Shown: positions 5,026 through 37,207 of the stretch, one piece after another
Numbering within the stretch: position 1 is the first letter of the stretch
How the letters are laid out: every line of letters begins with the position of its first letter
IMG/VR virus record: IMGVR_UViG_2740892106_000010
Strand: one strand, 5' to 3'
DNA length: 40,357 bases
From: a virus
Taxonomy: Duplodnaviria; Heunggongvirae; Uroviricota; Caudoviricetes
Made by a program: the position numbers and the translations under genes
Notes under the pieces: generated by a model
The model's database searches: none
Seen by the model: the letters and a program-made list of their open reading frames with translations, nothing else
What the model was told of the DNA's origin: nothing

Positions 5026-5102
5026 TTACCGTTGAGGTAATAATTATGCGTATTTGGTTTGATGTCAATAGATATGAGTTAAAAAAATTACCCATTAGGT
5101 AA
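5026..5102. promoter_or_regulatory. Leftward early promoter bracketed by two TTACC-N5-GGTAA palindromes
   Basis: Perfect palindromes at 5026..5040 and 5088..5102; on the minus strand a consensus -35 TTGACA (plus coordinates 5063..5068) and a TAATTA/AATTAT -10 about 17 bp downstream, with the -10 abutting the 5026 palindrome. Confidence 0.55.
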
Positions 5103-5114
5103 TAGTATAGGCAA

Positions 5115-5138
5115 TAAAAAAGCCGCCAGAAGGCGGCT
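5115..5138 (-). terminator. Rho-independent terminator after the repressor gene
   Basis: GC-rich hairpin AGCCGCC-agaa-GGCGGCT followed on the minus strand by a T-run, just downstream of the stop at 5160. Confidence 0.6.
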
Positions 5139-5159
5139 TACTTACTGAAAAATATGATT

Positions 5160-5744
5160 TTATTGTTTGTTTTTTTCGTTCTGGTTGATGACAAATTCAA
5201 TGTAACTTTCGATCTTTGCTTTCTCGGTTTCGGGTAACAATGCGTAGCGCGAGCGGTCATAGTTGATGGTCGCAGGGTCGTGCGGGTGAATCAGTAATTC
5301 ATAGCCGTGACGCCCGAATGCTGATGCAACATTCTCCAGGGTGGAAATGGAAACACTGACCTCATTGTTTAACAGGCGGCTGATTGTCACCTGGGCGACG
5401 CCGGATGCGCGGTGAAGTTTTCCCTGAGTTGAAAGGTCGCGGCTTTCGCTCATCCAGCGTTCCAGGTTGTGAGCCGCCAGCTGACCAATGTCGCTTGGGC
5501 CGACAGGCTGAAAACCTTCCTGAGAAAGCGAGCGATCGATATCAAGCCAGTTACGTGGTTTATTGGCGGCAGCTTCAATTTTTCGCGCAACCTGGTCGCC
5601 GATAACCTTCTTGCCAAGAGCCCAGCGGTTTACCAGATTTGCCTGAGTTCCAAGTTTTTCTGCCATCCGCGTCTGAACACCATTGAATTCACGGTCGATC
5701 AAGTCGTTGAGATTTTGCCTGCGGACGTCCTGGATACTTTTCAT
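5160..5744 (-). CDS. Prophage repressor candidate with two helix-turn-helix (XRE-type) domains and no peptidase S24 domain
   Basis: 194-aa ORF; two HTH-like segments (QTRMAEKLGTQANLVNRWALGKK and VAQVTISRLLNNEVSVSISTLENVA); divergent from a cro-like gene with operator-like palindromes between them; no Ala-Gly/Ser-Lys autocleavage module evident. Confidence 0.7.
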   Translation of the reverse strand: MKSIQDVRRQNLNDLIDREFNGVQTRMAEKLGTQANLVNRWALGKKVIGDQVARKIEAAANKPRNWLDIDRSLSQEGFQPVGPSDIGQLAAHNLERWMSESRDLSTQGKLHRASGVAQVTISRLLNNEVSVSISTLENVASAFGRHGYELLIHPHDPATINYDRSRYALLPETEKAKIESYIEFVINQNEKNKQ

Positions 5745-5799
5745 TTTCTGGAAAATCGCCTCATATATGAATCAGTAGATGATTCAATTTAAAGCAATA

Positions 5800-5862
5800 T
5801 TACCCAACAGGTAAATGCACCTCATGGGTAACTATCCTTGATTTTTGTTACCTTATGGGTGA
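5800..5862. promoter_or_regulatory. Immunity-region operators between the divergent repressor and cro-like genes
   Basis: Three adjacent sites: TTACCcaacaGGTAA (5800..5814, perfect), GCACCtcatgGGTAA (about 5817..5831, degenerate left half) and TTACCttatgGGTGA (5848..5862, one mismatch); a TTGATT -35-like hexamer lies between them. Confidence 0.6.
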
Positions 5863-5898
5863 ATATTTATTATCTGAAATAAATATCAGGCAATAGCT

Positions 5899-6129
5899 AT
5901 GAGCGATAACGGACATTTCGATTTCAAAAAGCACTGGCTTGCACTTACTCCGGATGAGCGTGAAGCCTTCGCACAGGAAGCCGGAACGACGAGTCACTAT
6001 ATCCAGACTCACTTAACAGGTAAGCGCAAAATGCCAGGTAAAGTATTGATGAATGGGCTTTTTAAAGCCTGTAAAACAAGACAATGGCTGCGCTCAAAAG
6101 CAGAACTGGCATACTTCTTCTACTCATGA
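5899..6129 (+). CDS. Cro-like small HTH regulator
   Basis: 76-aa ORF divergent from the repressor; HTH-like segment AQEAGTTSHYIQTHLTGKR; followed by an intrinsic terminator. Confidence 0.55.
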   Translation: MSDNGHFDFKKHWLALTPDEREAFAQEAGTTSHYIQTHLTGKRKMPGKVLMNGLFKACKTRQWLRSKAELAYFFYS

Positions 6130-6151
6130 TATCCAGCTACAACCCTCTGTA

Positions 6152-6174
6152 GACCGCCACCCGGCGGTCTTTTC
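6152..6174 (+). terminator. Rho-independent terminator after the cro-like gene
   Basis: Hairpin GACCGCC-accc-GGCGGTC followed by TTTTC. Confidence 0.6.
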
Positions 6175-6184
6175 ATATCTATTC

Positions 6185-6199
6185 GTACCTCAAAGGTAA
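6185..6199. promoter_or_regulatory. Operator-like site GTACC-N5-GGTAA (one mismatch to the TTACC-N5-GGTAA palindrome)
   Basis: Lies between the cro terminator and the downstream replication genes. Confidence 0.4.
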
Positions 6200-6277
6200 T
6201 AAAAAACCAAATCTGGTTGATCAAATTTTCCAATTGTGCAAAATAGCCAATATCAATAACAAAAAGGGGCGGAAAAA

Positions 6278-6490
6278 TTGAAGATAGTAACCAGAATGGA
6301 GGCCGCAAAAGCCGGGTTAAATCGCTATTTCACAGGAAAGCGGTGCCGTCACGGCCATCTCTCTGAAAGGTATGTTCTGAACGGAACATGTGTTGAATGT
6401 GCAATGAATAGCGCCAACCGCCATCGTAATGAATTTGCTTGTGCACTAAAGAGTGCAAGAGGGGAAACCTATGGCAAGCAGCTGGATTAA
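6278..6490 (+). CDS. Small Cys/His-rich hypothetical protein
   Basis: 70-aa ORF (TTG start in track; alternative ATG at 6296); C-x-H-G-H...C-x-x-C pattern suggests a small zinc-binding protein; sits where cII-like genes occur in lambdoid phages. Confidence 0.4.
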   Translation: MKIVTRMEAAKAGLNRYFTGKRCRHGHLSERYVLNGTCVECAMNSANRHRNEFACALKSARGETYGKQLD

Positions 6491-7301
6491 GGTTGAAGTT
6501 ATCACTCCTGATAAACCTGAAATTTTTCAGATAGCAGAAATTCTGGGTATTGATCCAGATGCTGTTCTTGGAAAGCTGGTTCGTATATGGGCATGGGCTG
6601 ACCAGCAAACAATAGACGGTAACGCTGGCAGCGTTACAAAAGGAGTACTTGATAGACTCGCTTTTATTACAGGATTTGCTGACGCCCTCATTAGCGTCGG
6701 ATGGCTTGCTTATCATGACGGCAAACTAATTCTTCCAAACTTTGAGCGACATAATGGAGAATCATCGAAAAAACGTGCACTTACGAATAGAAGAGTGGCA
6801 GAGCATCGAAAACGAGTAACGCAAAAAGTAACGCCAACAGCGTTACAAAAGGAGTTACCAGAGGAAGAGGAAGAGGAAGATATATATAAAACCCCACACA
6901 TAGCGCACGTGCGCGAGGGTGCTCCGACCAGTGAAGCGAACGGTATGCCGTTGCAGGTGGCTGAACCTGAATTTCTGGATGGCCTGAGTGAACCCATCGG
7001 GAAATTTCCGATGACCGATGGCTGGCATCCGTCGCCGGATTTTCGACGGCGTGCTGCGCTGTGGGGAACGGCCCTGCCGGAACCGGAATTTACACCTGCT
7101 GAACTTGCTGCATTCCGGGATTACTGGATGGCTGAGGGCAAAGTGTTCACGCAGGTTCAGTGGGAACAAAAATTCGCCAGGCACGTAAATCATATCAGGG
7201 GAAAATCAAAAAACGCCGGGAAAAGCGATGAGCTTGACTGGAATAACACTGACTGGATAGAAGGGGTGTGGGATGAAATCAACTCCAGAACTTCTCAATG
7301 A
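6471..7301 (+). CDS. Replication initiator, lambda O-like replisome organizer
   Basis: ATG at 6471 with GGGGAA RBS, in frame with track ORF 6453..7301; acidic linker (EEEEEED); contains DNA-level iteron-like repeats as lambda O does; immediately upstream of a lambda P-like gene. Confidence 0.65.
   Translation: MASSWIKVEVITPDKPEIFQIAEILGIDPDAVLGKLVRIWAWADQQTIDGNAGSVTKGVLDRLAFITGFADALISVGWLAYHDGKLILPNFERHNGESSKKRALTNRRVAEHRKRVTQKVTPTALQKELPEEEEEEDIYKTPHIAHVREGAPTSEANGMPLQVAEPEFLDGLSEPIGKFPMTDGWHPSPDFRRRAALWGTALPEPEFTPAELAAFRDYWMAEGKVFTQVQWEQKFARHVNHIRGKSKNAGKSDELDWNNTDWIEGVWDEINSRTSQ
6619..6855. repeat. Iteron-like repeats (putative replication origin) inside the O-like gene
   Basis: Palindrome GTAACGC-N5-GCGTTAC at 6619..6637 and 6828..6846, an extra GTAACGC at 6816..6822, and the 16-mer GCGTTACAAAAGGAGT at 6631..6646 and 6840..6855 read in different codon phases; followed by a GA-rich then AT-rich stretch. 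Confidence 0.5.
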
Positions 7302-8049
7302 GTACGATCGCTTACGTGAGCATGGTGTTGCTGTGCATGAAGAGCGGCGTGACAGCAATGGCAAAAAGGAGCAGGTTGCTAGAATTTTCAATGAACTATT
7401 TGTCCAGTTACAGGCTGCATTTCCTGCAAGCGTTTCGACCATAAGGGAGCAGAACAAACTTAATGAATTCCGTAAGCAATGGATGCTTGCGTTTCTGGAG
7501 AATGGGATCACAACAATGGAACAGGTTAACGCTGGTATGCGCCACGCCCGCGCCAGTGAATCTCCGTTCTGGCCGTCGCCTGGGCAATTCATCAAGTGGT
7601 GCAAAGACAGCAAGATGGTTCTTGGCGTCACCATTGACGATGTGATGGCGGAGTTTCACCGGTACAGCAAGGAAAAAAGTTTATATCCTGGTGGTCCCGA
7701 AAGATTCCCGTGGCGACATCCGGTTATGTACTGGGTCGTATGTGATACCCGCCGTGCAATGTATCAGCGCCAGCTTAGCGAGATTGAGGTTGAGAAACAC
7801 GCGCGCAGGCTGCTCGATGATTGGGCGAAAAAGGTGGCTTCCGGACAGCAGATACCCGATCCGGTGATCAGCATACAGGCAAAGCCAGAACCCATGAGTA
7901 CACCTCCGGACACAGGGAGAGACGTTTACCATCCACCAGGGCGAAGTTTCGGGTGTATGCCTAACGCCGCCACCCTGGGGGGAATAACACCGGCGCAGTG
8001 GCTGATGGAGGAATACAGGCGGGGAAAGGCGGCAGGATTTATCAAGTAA
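7273..8049 (+). CDS. Lambda P-like replication protein (helicase loader)
   Basis: Recalled similarity to lambda P: FPAS...REQNKLNEFRKQWMLAFLENGITTMEQVNAGMRHAR...PFWPSPGQFIKWC. Confidence 0.85.
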   Translation: MKSTPELLNEYDRLREHGVAVHEERRDSNGKKEQVARIFNELFVQLQAAFPASVSTIREQNKLNEFRKQWMLAFLENGITTMEQVNAGMRHARASESPFWPSPGQFIKWCKDSKMVLGVTIDDVMAEFHRYSKEKSLYPGGPERFPWRHPVMYWVVCDTRRAMYQRQLSEIEVEKHARRLLDDWAKKVASGQQIPDPVISIQAKPEPMSTPPDTGRDVYHPPGRSFGCMPNAATLGGITPAQWLMEEYRRGKAAGFIK

Positions 8050-8086
8050 TACCAGCGCGATAGCGCATTTTTTTACGTCTTGATAA

Positions 8087-8163
8087 TTACCTGTTTGGTA
8101 ATAAAATATTCTAAACTCTATTGATTTCGTGTCTTATGTGGTTTTTAATTACCTCAGGGGTAA
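8087..8163. promoter_or_regulatory. Promoter bracketed by two TTACC-N5-GGTAA palindromes upstream of gene 8167
   Basis: Perfect palindromes at 8087..8101 and 8149..8163; between them TTGATT (-35-like), a 17-bp spacer containing ATGTGGTT, and TTTAAT (-10-like) abutting the second palindrome. Confidence 0.55.
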
Positions 8164-8166
8164 ATC

Positions 8167-8511
8167 ATGAGAAAACAGATACAGGCTCTTGGTCGACTCA
8201 AAACAGGCCAGATGAACAAAACAGAATCTGCGTATTGCCAGCACCTTGAGCTGCGTAAACGTGCAGGGGAAATCGCCTGGTATCGATTCGAGGGTATCAA
8301 GCTGCGGTTAGCTGATAACACGTTCTATACGCCAGATTTCGCTGTGATGCTCGCCACCGGAGAGATGGAACTGCACGAAGTGAAAGGTTTCTGGACCGAC
8401 GACGCCAGGGTGAAAACCAAAGTCGCCGCAGATCAATATCCGTTCCGAATCATCGGGGTAACTGTTAAGCCAAAGAAAGCAGGTGGCGGATGGAAAATCG
8501 AAGAGTTCTGA
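8167..8511 (+). CDS. PD-(D/E)XK-like nuclease family protein (DUF1064/VRR-NUC-like)
   Basis: 114-aa ORF; YTPDF...ELHEVKG motif consistent with a PD-(D/E)XK fold; family name recalled, not searched. Confidence 0.45.
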   Translation: MRKQIQALGRLKTGQMNKTESAYCQHLELRKRAGEIAWYRFEGIKLRLADNTFYTPDFAVMLATGEMELHEVKGFWTDDARVKTKVAADQYPFRIIGVTVKPKKAGGGWKIEEF

Positions 8512-8572
8512 ATCGACGATCTTTTTAGTTATCAATGTAATCAATAAGTTATGTGGATAAGCGAGGGTAAAG

Positions 8573-31911: not shown

Positions 31912-32457
31912 CTATTCCTTCCATTTATCAGAAAAAAGATCTTCTTCTAAAGGCATTGGTTCTGTTTTTGTTTTCTCAAAGAATTGATAACTGATAGTGA
32001 TTGCTGCCTCTTTAAACTCTTCTTGCTCAGTTATGTTGTGGGCATCTGCGTCAACAAAAAACATAACCAGCGCATCACGATTGTGATTTACCGAATAAAC
32101 TAAAAAGCAATCACTTGTTGGTATGCATTTTACTTGCACAGACGCTATATTTTTCCATGCATCCCAAGATGATTTTTTACCAGTGTGTTTTTTATCACTA
32201 TATTCTGGAATATAGTCTTGGTTATCGACATGAGTATGCCTGACATTTAGTTTAAGCATTTCTGTCGGACGAGCAAATGCAGCATCTTTACCAAGAGATG
32301 GATGGTATCCCGTTTTCCAATACTGGGTAAAGGCATCAGATACTTTCTTCAGCTCAAGATCAGATGCACAAAGGGCCGAGAAATTTTGCGTATGCAATAC
32401 TCGACCCTTATATCTGACAATTTGATTTTTATCATTCTGCGACGCAGACGAACTCAT
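31912..32457 (-). CDS. Hypothetical protein (AT-rich moron, 181 aa)
   Basis: ATG at 32457 with AAGGA RBS (track start 32484 is TTG); AT-rich; no recognisable motif. Confidence 0.5.
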   Translation of the reverse strand: MSSSASQNDKNQIVRYKGRVLHTQNFSALCASDLELKKVSDAFTQYWKTGYHPSLGKDAAFARPTEMLKLNVRHTHVDNQDYIPEYSDKKHTGKKSSWDAWKNIASVQVKCIPTSDCFLVYSVNHNRDALVMFFVDADAHNITEQEEFKEAAITISYQFFEKTKTEPMPLEEDLFSDKWKE

Positions 32458-32611
32458 AATTTTCCTTATTGTTACGAGAATCAAAGAAAGCGCGGGATAC
32501 GCGACTTGCGTGATCTTTTGTCATAGTAACTTTTACGTACTCTACGCTTCCATTGAAAGAACGTCTTGCGGCAGCTTGCGCTCTACGCATCTGCAATTTT
32601 TCGTTTCGCAT
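32432..32611 (-). CDS. Small basic protein (59 aa) overlapping the start of the downstream gene
   Basis: ORF below the track cut-off with GAGGT RBS; overlaps the 181-aa gene by about 26 nt in another frame. Confidence 0.25.
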   Translation of the reverse strand: MRNEKLQMRRAQAAARRSFNGSVEYVKVTMTKDHASRVSRAFFDSRNNKENYEFVCVAE

Positions 32612-32671
32612 GACATTACCTCATATCTCATAAGTTCATTACACGGATTAATAAAAATGAAACCAATCCGT

Positions 32672-32714
32672 TTACCCTTGAGGTAATAGTACGCTATTCA
32701 CCCACAGTCTGCAA
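32672..32714. promoter_or_regulatory. Leftward promoter with overlapping TTACC-N5-GGTAA palindrome
   Basis: Perfect palindrome at 32672..32686; on the minus strand TTGCAG (-35-like), a 17-bp spacer and TACTAT (-10-like) abutting the palindrome. Confidence 0.45.
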
Positions 32715-32758
32715 TCTGTACAGAATTATTTAAAGGCACATCCCTGTGCCGCCGCCCG

Positions 32759-33493
32759 TCAGAAGAACCCTGCCTTGTCGTTGATGTACTCCGCGTGCGT
32801 CTGGATATCACGCAGGCATTTGCTCACACCAACGATGTAGCAGAACATGGTGGTCAGCTCCGCCGCCGCGCCCGATACGTCGTGCCCGTCGTCCTGTAAC
32901 TGGTTCAGCAGATTCATCAGCAGTGAGTTCTCCGTCAGGCCGAGAACACCAGACGGAGAATGAATCAGACTGCGGTAGCCGGGCTTCAGTGGGGCACTGT
33001 ATTCTTTTTTGTCTTCCAGCTTGATCGCCTCCATAATGGCGGGCATGAATTTTTCAATTACCTGAGTGGCCTTTGATAAATCAGCTCCACCTGAGAGACG
33101 AACATCTCCGCTGACATTTGCGGGTTTTCTGTCGAAGTAGCAATCTTCCAGTTTTTCGAAGACCTCCCACGCTTTTTCAGTCTCAAGAATTTTCGCATGT
33201 CGTGCTGCACCGCGAGCGGTCCATAAGAAAAGATGACTTACTTTTGGTGCAATATTAAGCAAACCTCTTTGAGAGGACTCGTTCTTAAATGCTCGTAATT
33301 CTTCGCCTATCAGCTTGAAACAATGTTTTCCCTCAATGAATCGATCTGCATTTCGTTGATAGTTTTGACGAATCAGTTTGGGTTCTGTGTCATACAAATC
33401 AGCAAGCATTTCTGTAGTCATTACAGGGATGTTGCAATGAGTTGTTATCGGCAACTTATCAATAGCTATATTACGCATTTTCATTGCCTCCAT
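32759..33493 (-). CDS. Antirepressor-like protein (ORF6N/Rha-type N-terminal domain plus C-terminal domain)
   Basis: 244-aa ORF; N-terminal region (IPVMTTEMLADLYDTEPKLIRQNYQRNADRFIEGKHCFKL) resembles ORF6N/Rha antirepressor domains; C-terminal about 70 aa is paralogous to the small protein encoded at 34292..34549. Confidence 0.65.
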   Translation of the reverse strand: MEAMKMRNIAIDKLPITTHCNIPVMTTEMLADLYDTEPKLIRQNYQRNADRFIEGKHCFKLIGEELRAFKNESSQRGLLNIAPKVSHLFLWTARGAARHAKILETEKAWEVFEKLEDCYFDRKPANVSGDVRLSGGADLSKATQVIEKFMPAIMEAIKLEDKKEYSAPLKPGYRSLIHSPSGVLGLTENSLLMNLLNQLQDDGHDVSGAAAELTTMFCYIVGVSKCLRDIQTHAEYINDKAGFF

Positions 33494-33977
33494 CTTTCAC
33501 GACGAAATAGCAATTATCTTTATAATCTAACTGGATGAACTTTATGTTTTCAGGGAGTTTTACAGAAAGAGTTTTTGCACAAGCAAAACCAAAATCTGCG
33601 CCAGAAGCATCCATATACCTTAATAATTGTTTTAATGCTGAAGGAGAAAAAGTATCTACCTTCACCTCAACAGGGTAACCATCTTTTGTTTTTAGGTCTG
33701 GTTGACCTGGTCCACCAAGTATTTCAGCGTTAAGGTATTTTGCTATTTCTGGATAAGCGTTGTATTCAGAGCGTAGTTTTGCCTTGTTATCGACTGCTAG
33801 TTGCATAAGATGATCAAACAAATTGGTATCTAAATCTGCCCCTTCATCCCACATTCTATTTCTACAGCTAATCAATTCACTGACCAGTGGTGCACTTTCT
33901 TGCCTTAGCATAAGAAGGAGTGGAGAATTAGAAATTAACCAATACAGATCGTCGTTTGAGATTTTTTGGCCTGGCAT
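33471..33977 (-). CDS. Hypothetical protein with PD-(D/E)XK-like motif
   Basis: 168-aa AT-rich ORF with GAGG RBS; D-x(n)-EVK motif (DGYPVEVKVD); overlaps the start of the Ant-like gene. Confidence 0.45.
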   Translation of the reverse strand: MPGQKISNDDLYWLISNSPLLLMLRQESAPLVSELISCRNRMWDEGADLDTNLFDHLMQLAVDNKAKLRSEYNAYPEIAKYLNAEILGGPGQPDLKTKDGYPVEVKVDTFSPSALKQLLRYMDASGADFGFACAKTLSVKLPENIKFIQLDYKDNCYFVVKDGGNENA

Positions 33978-34132
33978 AGCGATACCTCTACTAGTAAGTT
34001 ACCCACCACCGCAACGCCAATTGCTGGTGGTGAACTGGACAAGGTTGGCGTACCGGCCTAGTAGGTACCGGCGCACCTTTCGGTGCCCCTGCCCAGCCCA
34101 CCATAATTCGGATATGACTGTGCTATACGCAT

Positions 34133-34154
34133 AAAAAAACCACGTCTGGCGTGG
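34133..34154 (-). terminator. Rho-independent terminator (minus strand)
   Basis: Hairpin CCACG-ccaga-CGTGG followed on the minus strand by TTTTTTT. Confidence 0.55.
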
Positions 34155-34245
34155 TATGCGCCTACTAGTAATCCGGGACGCCAATCCCGGCACTGGATTT
34201 TGCCAGTGCCCGATTACTATGGCACAAGAGGAGTGCGATGTAAAT

Positions 34246-34288
34246 TTACCGCAAAGGTAAATATAAGCACTCCATTTGGTAATTGCAA
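34246..34288. promoter_or_regulatory. Leftward sigma70-like promoter with overlapping TTACC-N5-GGTAA palindrome
   Basis: On the minus strand: -35 TTGCAA (34283..34288), 16-bp spacer, -10 TTATAT (34261..34266), then the perfect palindrome TTACCgcaaaGGTAA (34246..34260) over the predicted start site. Confidence 0.45.
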
Positions 34289-34291
34289 ACC

Positions 34292-34549
34292 TTATCTGGT
34301 TTGTTTTCGTAATTGTTCGGCACAATAGTCGAGATGTGTTTGCAGATCCTGCATAGACATCTGTGAGCTGGTGACGTAGTTAATCAGTGCAGTCAGTTCG
34401 GCAAGTGGGCCATCGACATTAAATCCATCCTTATCGAGATCCCGGAGTAATTTCATCAAGTGCGATCCCTCCACCAGTGACCTGACGCCTCCCGGCGTGT
34501 GAATCCTTTCGGTAAATCCGTCTTCCAGTGGATAGTGATACTGCTGCAT
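34292..34549 (-). CDS. SOS-regulated small protein (85 aa), paralog of the Ant-like C-terminal domain; antirepressor candidate
   Basis: ATG at 34549 with GGAG RBS (track start 34567 is TTG); near-consensus LexA box 22 bp upstream; alignable by eye to residues about 170-240 of the protein encoded at 32759..33493. Confidence 0.55.
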   Translation of the reverse strand: MQQYHYPLEDGFTERIHTPGGVRSLVEGSHLMKLLRDLDKDGFNVDGPLAELTALINYVTSSQMSMQDLQTHLDYCAEQLRKQTR

Positions 34550-34570
34550 CTTATCTTCTCCATGCAATAA

Positions 34571-34586
34571 CTGTATAAATATACAG
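34571..34586. promoter_or_regulatory. LexA (SOS) box
   Basis: aaCTGTATAAATATACAGta matches the CTGT-N8-ACAG consensus with an AT-rich spacer (one spacer deviation from TACTGTATATATATACAGTA). Confidence 0.8.
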
Positions 34587-34624
34587 TATCAAATAATTTG
34601 TTTGCTATCCAGCACGTTTTGCAA

Positions 34625-34689
34625 ATTACCTGAAAGGTAATATCTATTCATATTCACAGTCTTTCTATCCATATGTGGTTTTTCAGGTA
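34625..34689. promoter_or_regulatory. Divergent regulatory region upstream of the tailspike gene
   Basis: Perfect palindrome TTACCtgaaaGGTAA at 34625..34639 followed about 32 bp later by ATGTGGTTtttcaGGTAA (34672..34689); on the minus strand a TTGCAA -35-like hexamer abuts the palindrome and leads into the LexA box. Confidence 0.5.
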
Positions 34690-34744: not shown

Positions 34745-37207
34745 ATGACGGTCTCAACAGAAGTTGACCACAACGAATACACAGGTAACGGCGTTACGAC
34801 ATCATTTCCGTATACCTTCCGTATTTTCAAAAAATCCGACCTGGTTGTTCAGGTGTCTGACCTTAACGGTAACGTTACAGAACTAGTGCTGGATGCTGGT
34901 TATACGGTAACAGGGGCGGGAACTTATAGTGGCGGTGCAGTGGTTCTTCCGTCGCCGCTTGCTGCTGGCTGGCGAATCACGATAGAGCGTGTGCTTGATG
35001 TGGTGCAGGAGACTGATCTTCGCAATCAGGGAAAATTTTTCCCCGAAGTTCATGAGGATGCATTTGACTACCTGACGATGCTGATCCAGCGATGTTTTGG
35101 GTGGTTCAGACGTGCATTGATGAAACCATCTTTGCTTGCAAAATATTACGATGCAAAGCAAAACAGAATATCTAACCTTGCAGATCCATCATTTGAGCAG
35201 GACGCTGTAAATAATCGCTCAATGCGCAATTATGTCGATGCTGCAATCGCCGGGGTTGTTGGTGGTTTTGGTTGGTTTATTCAGTATGGTTCTGGAGCGG
35301 TATACAGAACACTCCAGGATAAGATGCGTGATGGTGTCAGCATTAAGGATTTTGGAGCTCAAAATGGAATCTTAAATGATAACAAGGAGGCTTTTACAAA
35401 ATCATTACATTCGTTTAGCAGTGTTTTTGTTCCGGAAGGGGTATTCAATACATCTTTAGTTTCTCTTTCACGTTGTGGCTTGTACGGAACAGGTGGGGGA
35501 ACGATAAAACAGTATGACAGAGATGGTAATCATCTGGTTTTTAACATGCCCGATGGTGGCATGCTTAGTACGCTAACAATTATGGGAAATAAATCAGATG
35601 ATAGTGTGCAGGGACACCAGGTGTCATTTTCAGGTGGCCATGATGTATCGGTTAAAAATATCAGATTTACAAATACGCGAGGACCAGGATTTAGCTTGAT
35701 CGCTTATCCGAATAATGGTATTCCGTCAGGTTACATTGTTAGAGATATAAGAGGAGAGTATTTAGGGTTCGCAAATAATAAAAAAGCAGGTTGTGTGCTT
35801 TTTGATTCATCGCAAAACACGCTAATTGATGGTGTGATAGCCAGAAATTATCCTCAGTTTGGTGCAGTGGAACTTAAAACAGCAGCAAAATATAACATTG
35901 TCAGCAATGTTATTGGTGAAGAGTGTCAGCACGTTGTTTACAATGGAACTGAGACGGAAACTGCCCCAACGAATAATATCATTAGCAGTGTAATGGCTAA
36001 CAACCCAAAATACGCCGCAGTAGTTGTTGGCAAGGGGACTGGTAACCTGATTTCGGATGTGCTGGTTGATTACTCTGAATCGGACGCAAAGCAGGCGCAC
36101 GGCGTCACCGTTCAGGGAAATAATAATATTGCCAGTAATATTCTAATGACTGGGTGTGATGGGAAAAATGAATCAGGAGATCTGCAGAAATCTACAACCA
36201 TTCGTTTCTTAAATGCTGCAGGCAGTAATTATGCGTCAATATTCCCCATGTATAGTTCTTCTGGCGTGGTTACCTTCGAGGAAGGGTGTATCAGGAACTT
36301 TGTTGAAATTAAACATCCGGGTGATAGAAATAATATTCTGAGTTCTGCATCAGCGGTGACTGGTATTTCCAGTATAGACGGCACTACAAATAGCAATGTT
36401 GTTCATGTCCCTGCTCTTGGTCAGTACATTGGGACTATGTCAGGGCGTTTTGAATGGTGGGTTAAATATTTTAACCTTGCTAACCAGACGCTTGTTTCTG
36501 CAGATAAATTCAGAATGCTTGCTGAAGGCGATGTATCTCTGGCTGTGGGAGGCGGTATAAGTTCGCAATTGAAATTATTCAATAGTGATAATACTAAAGG
36601 CACTATGTCGCTAATAAATGGAAATATTCGAATATCTACTGGAAATTCAGAATATATACAGTTTTCTGATTCAGCCATGACACCATCGACAACGAATACT
36701 TATTCTCTTGGGTTGGCTGGTCGTGCATGGTCGGGGGGATTTACCCAGTCAGCATTTACGGTGCTGTCCGATGCGCGTTTCAAGACTGCTCCAGAGGTTA
36801 TTGATGAGAAAATACTGGACGCATGGGAAAGAGTGGAATGGGTTTCATACCAGTACCTTGACAGGATCGAAGTGAAAGGTAAAGACGGAGCAAGATGGCA
36901 CTTTGGTGCAGTTGCGCAGCATGTTATCAGTGTATTTCAGAATGAAGGCATAGATGTGTCACGACTGGCATTTATCTGTTATGACAAGTGGAATGAGACC
37001 CCGGCAGAATACAGGGATGTGACGGAAGAAGAGCATTCTGCAGGAGTTTACCCACTTATACAGACAAAGGTTCTGGTACGCGAAGCCGTCGAGGCTGGTG
37101 AATGTTACGGTATCCGTTATGAAGAGGCTCTGATTCTGGAATCTGCGATGATGAGACGCAGGGTTAAAAAGCTGGAAGAGCAAGTTTTGCAATTAACAGG
37201 GAATTGA
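34745..37207 (+). CDS. Tailspike/tail fiber with beta-helix-like central region and C-terminal intramolecular-chaperone-like domain
   Basis: 820-aa ORF; conserved podovirus-type N-terminal adaptor region (YTGNGVTTSFPYTF); Asn/Gly/Ser-rich repetitive middle; C-terminal GARWHFGAVAQHVISVF...RLAF motif like peptidase S74 chaperone domains (recalled). Confidence 0.75.
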   Translation: MTVSTEVDHNEYTGNGVTTSFPYTFRIFKKSDLVVQVSDLNGNVTELVLDAGYTVTGAGTYSGGAVVLPSPLAAGWRITIERVLDVVQETDLRNQGKFFPEVHEDAFDYLTMLIQRCFGWFRRALMKPSLLAKYYDAKQNRISNLADPSFEQDAVNNRSMRNYVDAAIAGVVGGFGWFIQYGSGAVYRTLQDKMRDGVSIKDFGAQNGILNDNKEAFTKSLHSFSSVFVPEGVFNTSLVSLSRCGLYGTGGGTIKQYDRDGNHLVFNMPDGGMLSTLTIMGNKSDDSVQGHQVSFSGGHDVSVKNIRFTNTRGPGFSLIAYPNNGIPSGYIVRDIRGEYLGFANNKKAGCVLFDSSQNTLIDGVIARNYPQFGAVELKTAAKYNIVSNVIGEECQHVVYNGTETETAPTNNIISSVMANNPKYAAVVVGKGTGNLISDVLVDYSESDAKQAHGVTVQGNNNIASNILMTGCDGKNESGDLQKSTTIRFLNAAGSNYASIFPMYSSSGVVTFEEGCIRNFVEIKHPGDRNNILSSASAVTGISSIDGTTNSNVVHVPALGQYIGTMSGRFEWWVKYFNLANQTLVSADKFRMLAEGDVSLAVGGGISSQLKLFNSDNTKGTMSLINGNIRISTGNSEYIQFSDSAMTPSTTNTYSLGLAGRAWSGGFTQSAFTVLSDARFKTAPEVIDEKILDAWERVEWVSYQYLDRIEVKGKDGARWHFGAVAQHVISVFQNEGIDVSRLAFICYDKWNETPAEYRDVTEEEHSAGVYPLIQTKVLVREAVEAGECYGIRYEEALILESAMMRRRVKKLEEQVLQLTGN

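Follow-up and report, generated by a model that had tools for sequence, protein, structure and literature searches.

A LexA box, an SPC32H-type antirepressor gene and a predicted RNA-gated paralog in a phiV10-like prophage

How can DNA damage induce a prophage whose repressor carries no domain for self-cleavage? The question is raised by a viral DNA of 40,357 nucleotides (nt) assigned to Caudoviricetes (IMG/VR record IMGVR_UViG_2740892106_000010; "the window" below always means this whole stretch), in which a small gene, ant, stands behind a LexA box. An initial annotation, made from the sequence alone, had proposed that the gene is a LexA-repressed antirepressor directed against a non-cleavable repressor. 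Homology to a characterised system supports that proposal, but not its novelty. By homology, ant is an ortholog of the antirepressor gene of Salmonella phage SPC32H, and the window holds the Escherichia coli ortholog of the already known SPC32H Rep/Ant system, not a new candidate. Since the real family is that of SPC32H Ant, a known system had been rediscovered from raw sequence.

A LexA box in front of an SPC32H-type ant gene

Judged by its relatives, the window is a phiV10/epsilon15-like (Uetakevirus) prophage carrying a Rep/Ant antirepression switch. DNA around the ant locus is ~91-96% identical to that of phages phiV10, TL-2011b, phiv142-3 and ZX5, over 21-59% query coverage each, and annotated members of the genus occur among these matches. 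The broader ant region is matched, at least partly, in 533 of 5,426 complete E. coli genomes (~10%). The repressor gene, rep, lies at 5.2-5.7 kb and ant at 34.3-34.5 kb, which places ant outside the immunity region. Together with a tailspike gene that begins at 34745 on the other strand, ant forms a divergent pair; ant of SPC32H occupies the same place in its genome, also divergent from the tailspike gene.

The predicted 85-amino-acid (aa) open reading frame (ORF) was confirmed on the minus strand, with its ATG 8 nt after GGAG. Its product, the small Ant, matches chain E of PDB entry 5D50 ('Anti-repressor protein', Salmonella phage SPC32H) over residues 2-84 (phmmer E 4e-47). In tblastn comparisons its identity is 88% with the annotated SPC32H ant (KC911856) and 100% with a protein that E. 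coli phage vB_EcoP_ZX5 (ZX5) carries as a 'hypothetical protein'. Neither Pfam nor NCBIfam gave a significant family for it; PHROGs alone recognises the protein, as phrog_450 of 'unknown function'. The SPC32H Rep/Ant switch was reportedly described by Kim and Ryu in 2013 and by Kim et al. in 2016, with PDB entries 5D50 and 5D4Z. One published account, in its passage on SPC32H, has LexA self-cleavage lead to production of the antirepressor, which inhibits the repressor by protein-protein interaction (PMC7380047); in an excerpt of another, tetrameric Ant binds two Rep dimers and so breaks the DNA-binding Rep tetramer (PMC9638917).

The LexA box is close to consensus. Its core, CTGTATAAATATACAG, was found at 34571-34586, where it had been predicted, and the 20-mer around it, AACTGTATAAATATACAGTA, has 18 of its 20 positions in common with the E. 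coli LexA consensus TACTGTATATATATACAGTA. No other site in the 40-kb window lies within three mismatches of the consensus, and none of 100 dinucleotide-preserving shuffles of the window contained any such site. The looser pattern CTGT-N8-ACAG has three matches (0.66 expected), only this one with an AT-rich core. The box does lie upstream of ant as annotated, but the distance from box to start codon is 21 nt, not 22 bp. In an alignment of ant upstream regions the SPC32H box CTGTATGTTTATACAG falls exactly over that of the window, and a LexA box is kept in ZX5, phiV10, a Klebsiella prophage and Salmonella prophage L006 (six loci in all), with varying flanking bases. A single-base change in the SPC32H box is said, in an abstract of Kim and Ryu from 2013, to make Ant constitutive. 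We also considered whether the box might serve the divergent tailspike gene. This was rejected because of the distances (157 bp to the tailspike start versus 21 nt to ant) and because the box is conserved together with ant.

The presumed target of Ant is the 194-aa Rep, which matches chain A of 5D50 ('Repressor') over its whole length (E 4e-42). In Pfam, Rep has helix-turn-helix (HTH) domains only (HTH_3/HTH_26) and no Peptidase_S24 match, which bears out the earlier claim of a repressor without an autocleavage domain. Rep is 100% identical to the Rep proteins of phiV10 and ZX5 and 41.8% identical to that of SPC32H, with 54% identity in the N-terminal domain and 39% in the C-terminal domain. 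A palindrome, TTACC-N5-GGTAA, occurs 15 times in the window when one mismatch is allowed (0.64 expected), clustered around rep, and is kept at both ant-proximal positions in all relatives aligned. The same motif flanks rep of SPC32H (six sites in 3 kb versus 0.03 expected), despite the low identity of the two Rep proteins. The sites in the window are dispersed over 5026-15229 and 32672-34640, some of them distant from the immunity region (8087, 8149, 12070, 12088 and 15215), a distribution that recalls phage P1 with its many scattered C1 operators.

The long antirepressor and its RNA module

Downstream of ant, on the same strand, lies a gene for a long Ant-like protein, which the initial annotation had placed at 32759..33493. 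The gene itself holds up, but a start at 33493 is less likely than the ATG at 33478, which is preceded by a GGAGG Shine-Dalgarno (SD) sequence and is the NCBI start for identical 239-aa proteins. Its ORF6N type was confirmed (Pfam PF10543, E 1e-18, residues 16-102 in the numbering of the 244-aa ORF from 33493). PADLOC, run on the proteins neighbouring the small Ant with the small Ant excluded, gave this ORF6N region as its sole match. In PHROGs, the protein matches phrog_1760 ('anti-repressor', 1.5e-97) at full length, positions 1-232 of 232.

The similarity of the small and long proteins, first seen by eye, is formally significant: BLASTP aligns residues 2-75 of the small Ant with residues 163-236 of the 244-aa ORF, ungapped, with 31 of 74 identities (42%) and an E value of 7e-16. 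The C-terminal 80 residues of the long protein match 5D50_E at E 1e-13. An AlphaFold model of the long protein (mean predicted local distance difference test score, pLDDT, 78) has an ORF6N domain, a low-confidence and probably flexible linker, and a helical C-terminal domain (pLDDT 81-95) whose top PDB match is 5d50_G (template modelling score, TM, 0.82; root mean square deviation, rmsd, 1.9 Å; 38% identity).

The Ant fold family is small. An exhaustive profile search of 1.84 billion representatives yielded no more than 64 clusters (50% identity), in which the fold occurs as a stand-alone protein or as the C-terminal domain behind AntA, Bro-N, pRha or ORF6N. A word-indexed protein search with the small Ant retrieved close orthologs only; the fused forms came to light only via the exhaustive profile search. 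At the N-terminus the window protein has ORF6N, its counterparts from ZX5, TL-2011b and phiV10 have Bro-N, and those from many E. coli prophages have AntA. The C-terminal domain of ZX5 and TL-2011b differs from that of the window by one residue, and that of the AntA fusions is 92-93% identical. Fusion of one domain to Bro-N, AntA and ORF6N indicates that the C-terminal domain is constant and the N-terminal domain exchangeable. In phiV10, gp23 (locus L002, 1607-2191, 'putative anti-immunity protein') loses the Ant-like C-terminal domain after ~40 residues, where the alignment ends with RTTGMMYQARRRS. The long antirepressor thus looks truncated in this type phage, which retains intact isrK and C4 RNAs.

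Within the 314 bp that follow the ant stop codon and precede the next ORF we identified two minus-strand Rfam RNAs overlooked by the initial annotation: an isrK-type Hfq-binding RNA, which is also the c4-a1b1 target element, and a C4 antisense RNA. The annotation had placed the long paralog under a different, operator-controlled promoter. This is plausible, as a putative promoter, P_isrK, at a position conserved in relatives, is abutted by the palindrome TTTACCGCAAAGGTAAA, a probable Rep operator conserved in ZX5, phiV10, Salmonella prophage L006 and the Klebsiella prophage. What it missed was the main control, the isrK/C4 antisense module. Two exposed segments of C4, CCUACUAG and ACGCCAA, are exactly complementary to the 7-8-mers CUAGUAGG and UUGGCGU of the isrK element. 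They also pair with UUGGCGU and CUAGUAG(AGG) 5' of a 168-aa ORF (start 33977), the second of which covers the SD sequence.

These pairings covary three ways, among C4, a1 and a2, across four phage lineages. The window combines C4 CCUACUAG with a1 CUAGUAGG and a2 CUAGUAGAGG; in ZX5 and phiV10, C4 CCUUUUAG faces CUAAAAGG at both a1 and a2. Salmonella prophage L006 has C4 CCGUUUAG, a1 CUAAACGG and a2 CUAAACGAGG, and the Klebsiella prophage has C4 CCUUUGUAG with CUACAAAGG at both targets. The second pair is likewise altered in the Klebsiella prophage, from ACGCCAA/UUGGCGU to AGACCAA/UUGGUCU. phiV10, TL-2011b, ZX5 and the Klebsiella prophage all carry the isrK/C4 module, and each has a long Ant-like gene (truncated in phiV10). 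The module is absent in SPC32H, which also has no long Ant-like gene.

The 168-aa ORF is the first gene under the predicted C4 control. Its stop and the start of the long antirepressor gene share 8 nt (ATGCGTAA), an overlap also present in Salmonella prophage L006, and the two genes are therefore probably translationally coupled. Together, the isrK/C4 RNAs, the covarying pairings and the overlap place the long paralog in an RNA-gated operon of the P1 immI/Gifsy-1 IsrK type. The 168-aa protein has no match in Pfam, NCBIfam or PADLOC, and tblastn gave none in 50,697 phage records. Its database clusters number 11, all from Enterobacteriaceae. In the window and in both Salmonella contigs examined, the ORF stands directly 5' of the ORF6N antirepressor gene, and 21 of the 5,426 complete E. 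coli genomes carry the cassette of the two genes, which a Salmonella prophage has in the same arrangement. An AlphaFold model was unusable (pLDDT 44). By eye, we noticed a PD...E-x-K-like motif, PDLKTKDGYPVEVK, and an alpha-beta-beta-beta-alpha-beta pattern, which hint at a nuclease fold and are offered as a lead only.

The only terminator-like structure on that strand between the ant stop codon and the 168-aa ORF is the isrK terminator. With no terminator between ant and isrK, LexA-controlled ant transcripts should run into the isrK element. The two suggested induction routes therefore need not be independent and may be coupled. In TL-2011b (locus L001, 2788-3703), ~900 bp, partly annotated 'similar to hypothetical protein', are inserted between ant and isrK. 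The juxtaposition of ant and isrK is therefore not universal, which bears on the importance of any coupling by read-through.

Proposed prophage induction by two routes

Addressing the opening question, we favour an account in which a Rep/Ant switch is combined with an RNA-gated long antirepressor, and put its probability at roughly 0.8. From the homologies and sites described above we infer binding of LexA and Rep as proposed, binding of Ant to Rep in this phage, and the following order of events. Host LexA, seated on its box, would silence ant in the lysogen. DNA damage would remove LexA, Ant would be made and would bind the two-HTH Rep, itself unable to self-cleave, and Rep would leave its TTACC-N5-GGTAA operators, inducing the prophage. 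This first route, derepression of ant and inactivation of a non-cleavable Rep, is very likely.

The second unit, directly downstream on the same strand, runs from a promoter-like site with an operator-like palindrome through the isrK/a1b1 RNA with its terminator, C4 and the 168-aa ORF to the long antirepressor gene. Its proposed control logic is probable, with somewhat more room for doubt: in the lysogen two blocks would act on the long antirepressor, Rep repressing the isrK promoter and C4 RNA pairing over the ribosome-binding site of the coupled upstream ORF. SOS-made small Ant could free the Rep-repressed P_isrK, and ant transcripts carrying the a1b1/IsrK element could titrate C4 or activate translation in trans as in Gifsy-1. 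The long antirepressor would then be expressed second, locking in the inactivation of Rep. That the two antirepressors are coupled in such a relay, instead of acting as independent routes, is a tentative idea that we consider rather doubtful. If it were true, the relay would turn a short-lived SOS signal into self-sustaining production of a further antirepressor with the same Rep-binding fold. As a corollary, the long Bro-N/AntA/ORF6N/pRha antirepressors would have their immunity-specific 'warhead' in the constant Ant-fold C-terminal domain, and the swappable N-terminal domains would serve some other purpose.

Several points weigh against the two-route account. In a simple consensus scan no sigma-70 promoter showed up ahead of ant; visual inspection gives, as best candidate, a -35 element TTGATA at 34592-34587 with a weak -10 element, and the supposed overlap of the LexA box with the ant promoter follows the precedent of SPC32H. 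The role of TTACC-N5-GGTAA as Rep operator is predicted from enrichment and position. With Ant 88% and Rep 42% identical to their SPC32H counterparts, a conserved Ant-Rep interface has to be assumed. The c4-a1b1 motif (RF03163) scores 45.1 bits, just below its gathering score of 46.7. The AlphaFold model of the long protein is not independent of 5D50, because that structure was public before training. Finally, judging by the phiV10 truncation, at least one viable phage can do without the long copy.

The same truncation bears on an alternative that makes the long, RNA-gated protein the functionally dominant inducer for this lineage of E. coli and leaves the small Ant an accessory role. Instead of acting on Rep itself, the small Ant might, for example, only trigger expression of the long protein or form mixed oligomers with the Ant-fold domain of the latter. 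When overexpressed alone, the ZX5 long antirepressor shifts the phage from lysogeny, the fold common to both proteins forms a tetramer in SPC32H, and Rep has strongly diverged from SPC32H Rep where the small Ant has not. We nevertheless regard a merely accessory small Ant as unlikely: SPC32H and epsilon15 have the small Ant only, phiV10 combines an identical Rep with a truncated long antirepressor, the small Ant is under strong purifying selection across genera, and reviews, in the passages concerned, put SPC32H induction through the LexA-controlled antirepressor. The unequal divergence of Ant and Rep could also mean that the small Ant is kept mainly for cross-talk, against repressors of heteroimmune Uetakevirus or unrelated prophages, with the resident Rep inactivated otherwise. 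Cross-talk of this kind is documented between heteroimmune Gifsy and Fels-1 prophages (PMC3121763). Such a role is quite improbable here, as Rep has no autocleavage domain and yet ZX5, with identical Rep and Ant, is mitomycin C-inducible. Moreover, the N-terminal domain is the better conserved part of Rep, and both Rep types appear to use one operator motif, pointing to a conserved DNA-binding surface, open to recognition by a single Ant.

It is also conceivable that the LexA-like palindrome is there by chance or is vestigial and that the small gene is SOS-independent, in keeping with the lack of a detected consensus promoter around the box. We give this very little credence, given a match of 18/20 where 0 of 100 shuffles reached even 17/20, and a position kept in phages of E. 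coli, Salmonella and Klebsiella despite varying flanking bases.

Under the two-route account, the homology would extend the SPC32H-type SOS switch to phiV10-like E. coli prophages. It also connects the fold of a crystallised small antirepressor with the C-terminal domain of the long antirepressors, a widespread group in which the functional domain had been unclear. What appear to be SOS-gated and antisense-RNA-gated copies of one fold stand in tandem in these phages, which may offer a tractable system in which DNA-damage and RNA-based control of immunity are combined in one lysis-lysogeny switch. The tandem with an RNA-gated paralog and the domain relation to the long antirepressors appear to have no earlier description in the literature examined, and are modestly interesting.

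Coordinates, neighbouring genes and known systems

Features of the rep and ant loci in the window (strand - is the strand of ant; putative and predicted roles as argued in the text)
Feature	Position	Strand	Evidence or remark
TTACC-N5-GGTAA sites flanking rep and the divergent cro-like gene	5026, 5088, 5800, 5848, 6185		
rep, 194-aa prophage repressor, presumed target of both antirepressors	5160..5744	-	5D50_A match
Palindrome TTTACCCTTGAGGTAAT	32671..32687		3' of long antirepressor, 5' of 59-aa/YafO-like pair
Long antirepressor, 239 aa	32759..33478	-	longest ORF reaches 33493 (244 aa)
Ant-like C-terminal domain of long antirepressor	32777-33007	-	separated from ORF6N by linker
ORF6N domain of long antirepressor	33188-33448	-	
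168-aa ORF, 'icd/orf45' position	33471..33977	-	phrog_18738
C4 target a2/b2 over ribosome-binding site of 168-aa ORF	33985..34020	-	b2 UUGGCGU 34020-34014; a2 CUAGUAG 33994-33988; SD GAGG 33988-33985
C4 antisense RNA	34023..34108	-	RF01695, 76.7 bits (gathering score 45)
Exposed segments of C4	a' 34065-34058; b' 34051-34045	-	a' CCUACUAG; b' ACGCCAA
isrK-type Hfq-binding RNA / c4-a1b1 target element	34133..34222	-	RF01394 at 34209-34133, 68.1 bits (gathering score 50); RF03163 at 34222-34170
Targets in isrK element	b1 34184-34178; a1 34168-34161	-	b1 UUGGCGU; a1 CUAGUAGG
isrK intrinsic (Rho-independent) terminator	34155-34139	-	
Palindrome TTTACCGCAAAGGTAAA, probable Rep operator	34245..34261		abuts -10 of putative P_isrK
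Putative P_isrK, TTGCAA-17-TATATT	34260..34288	-	9/12 to consensus; starts 4 nt past ant stop codon
ant, 85-aa predicted SOS-controlled antirepressor, SPC32H Ant ortholog	34292..34549	-	phmmer 5D50_E; phrog_450
LexA (SOS) box AACTGTATAAATATACAGTA	34569..34588		core CTGT-N8-ACAG at 34571-34586; 18/20 to consensus
Palindrome ATTACCTGAAAGGTAAT, probable Rep operator between ant and tailspike gene	34625..34641		same position in 5 phages

Just downstream of the long antirepressor gene, a 59-aa ORF overlaps a 190-aa ORF of the YafO toxin-like family (31912-32611, minus strand; PF13957, E 1e-5; PGAP 'type II toxin-antitoxin system YafO family toxin'). As a palindrome precedes the pair, these may be Rep-controlled, toxin-antitoxin-like accessory genes. 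On the other side of ant, the 820-aa tailspike gene (34745-37207, plus strand) has an N-terminus common to phiV10/epsilon15 tail fibres. In otherwise near-identical E. coli prophages PGAP annotates the gene at this position mostly as 'tail fiber domain-containing protein', and in one case as an endosialidase beta-propeller protein; this variation indicates swapping of the receptor-binding module beside a conserved ant locus. A tRNA-Arg gene (anticodon TCT) lies inside the phage genome at 14816-14892 on the minus strand (Rfam 73.3 bits; ARAGORN).

With SPC32H the window shares an orthologous Ant of 85/86 aa, a two-HTH Rep without a cleavage domain, an aligned LexA box, the tailspike-divergent position of ant, and TTACC-N5-GGTAA sites around rep. 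It differs in that Rep is only 42% identical and in that SPC32H has neither a second Ant-like gene nor isrK/C4 RNAs downstream of ant. In ZX5, whose Rep and small Ant are identical to those of the window, the long antirepressor (ORF4) has a Bro-N N-terminal domain in place of ORF6N and a C-terminal domain that differs by one residue. ZX5 is mitomycin C-inducible, and overexpressed ORF4 lowers lysogens ~1000-fold; the study covers the long antirepressor only and makes no mention of the small ant, LexA or SPC32H (PMC9782041). Compared with the long antirepressors of phrog_1760/phrog_377, which have Bro-N, AntA, pRha or ORF6N N-terminal domains, the window protein has a full-length phrog_1760 match and a C-terminal domain nearly identical to that of ZX5 ORF4.

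Small LexA-repressed antirepressors that are encoded outside the immunity region and bind a non-cleavable repressor include Tum (phage 186), AntC (N15) and GfoA/GftA/GfhA (Gifsy) (PMC3121763). The initial annotation likened ant to Tum and the Gifsy antirepressors; the regulatory logic agrees, but the sequence family is that of SPC32H Ant. Membership of the Tum/Gifsy families was rejected, as neither Pfam nor the exhaustive profile search detected homology. The repressor families differ as well. Searches found no DinI-like region or other Pfam family in the small Ant, and the exhaustive profile search gave only SPC32H-Ant-type proteins or fusions.

For the second unit, one counterpart is the isrK-orf45-anrP locus of Gifsy-1, in which IsrK provided in trans activates translation of the coupled genes that follow it (Hershko-Shalev et al. 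2016; PMC4825925). Both loci have an isrK RNA (RF01394) with a terminator that is leaky in Gifsy-1 and by analogy may be so here, then a short processed RNA/ORF region and an antirepressor-like gene, translationally coupled in Gifsy-1 and probably so in the window. In the window, unlike in Gifsy-1, the first ORF has 168 aa instead of 45 aa, the antirepressor has another C-terminal domain, and a gene with a LexA box, ant, lies directly upstream with no terminator before isrK.

The other counterpart is the immI operon of phages P1 and P7, with its c4-icd-ant architecture, details of which are said to go back to Citron and Schuster in 1990 and Biere et al. in 1992. The window and immI share a C4 RNA (RF01695) that is co-transcribed with its own target, upstream of the antirepressor gene on the same strand. 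Common to both are an upstream a1/b1 and a downstream a2/b2 pair, the latter lying over the ribosome-binding site of the first ORF, an antirepressor gene overlapping that ORF, a repressor-operator-like site at the promoter, and specificity loops that vary among relatives as they do between P1 and P7. They differ in the first ORF, likened to icd by position and here without a Pfam or NCBIfam match, and in the antirepressor, which here combines ORF6N with an SPC32H-Ant-fold domain. Moreover, the host phage here is a podovirus with another repressor family, and the module stands directly behind a paralog that is itself predicted to be SOS-controlled.

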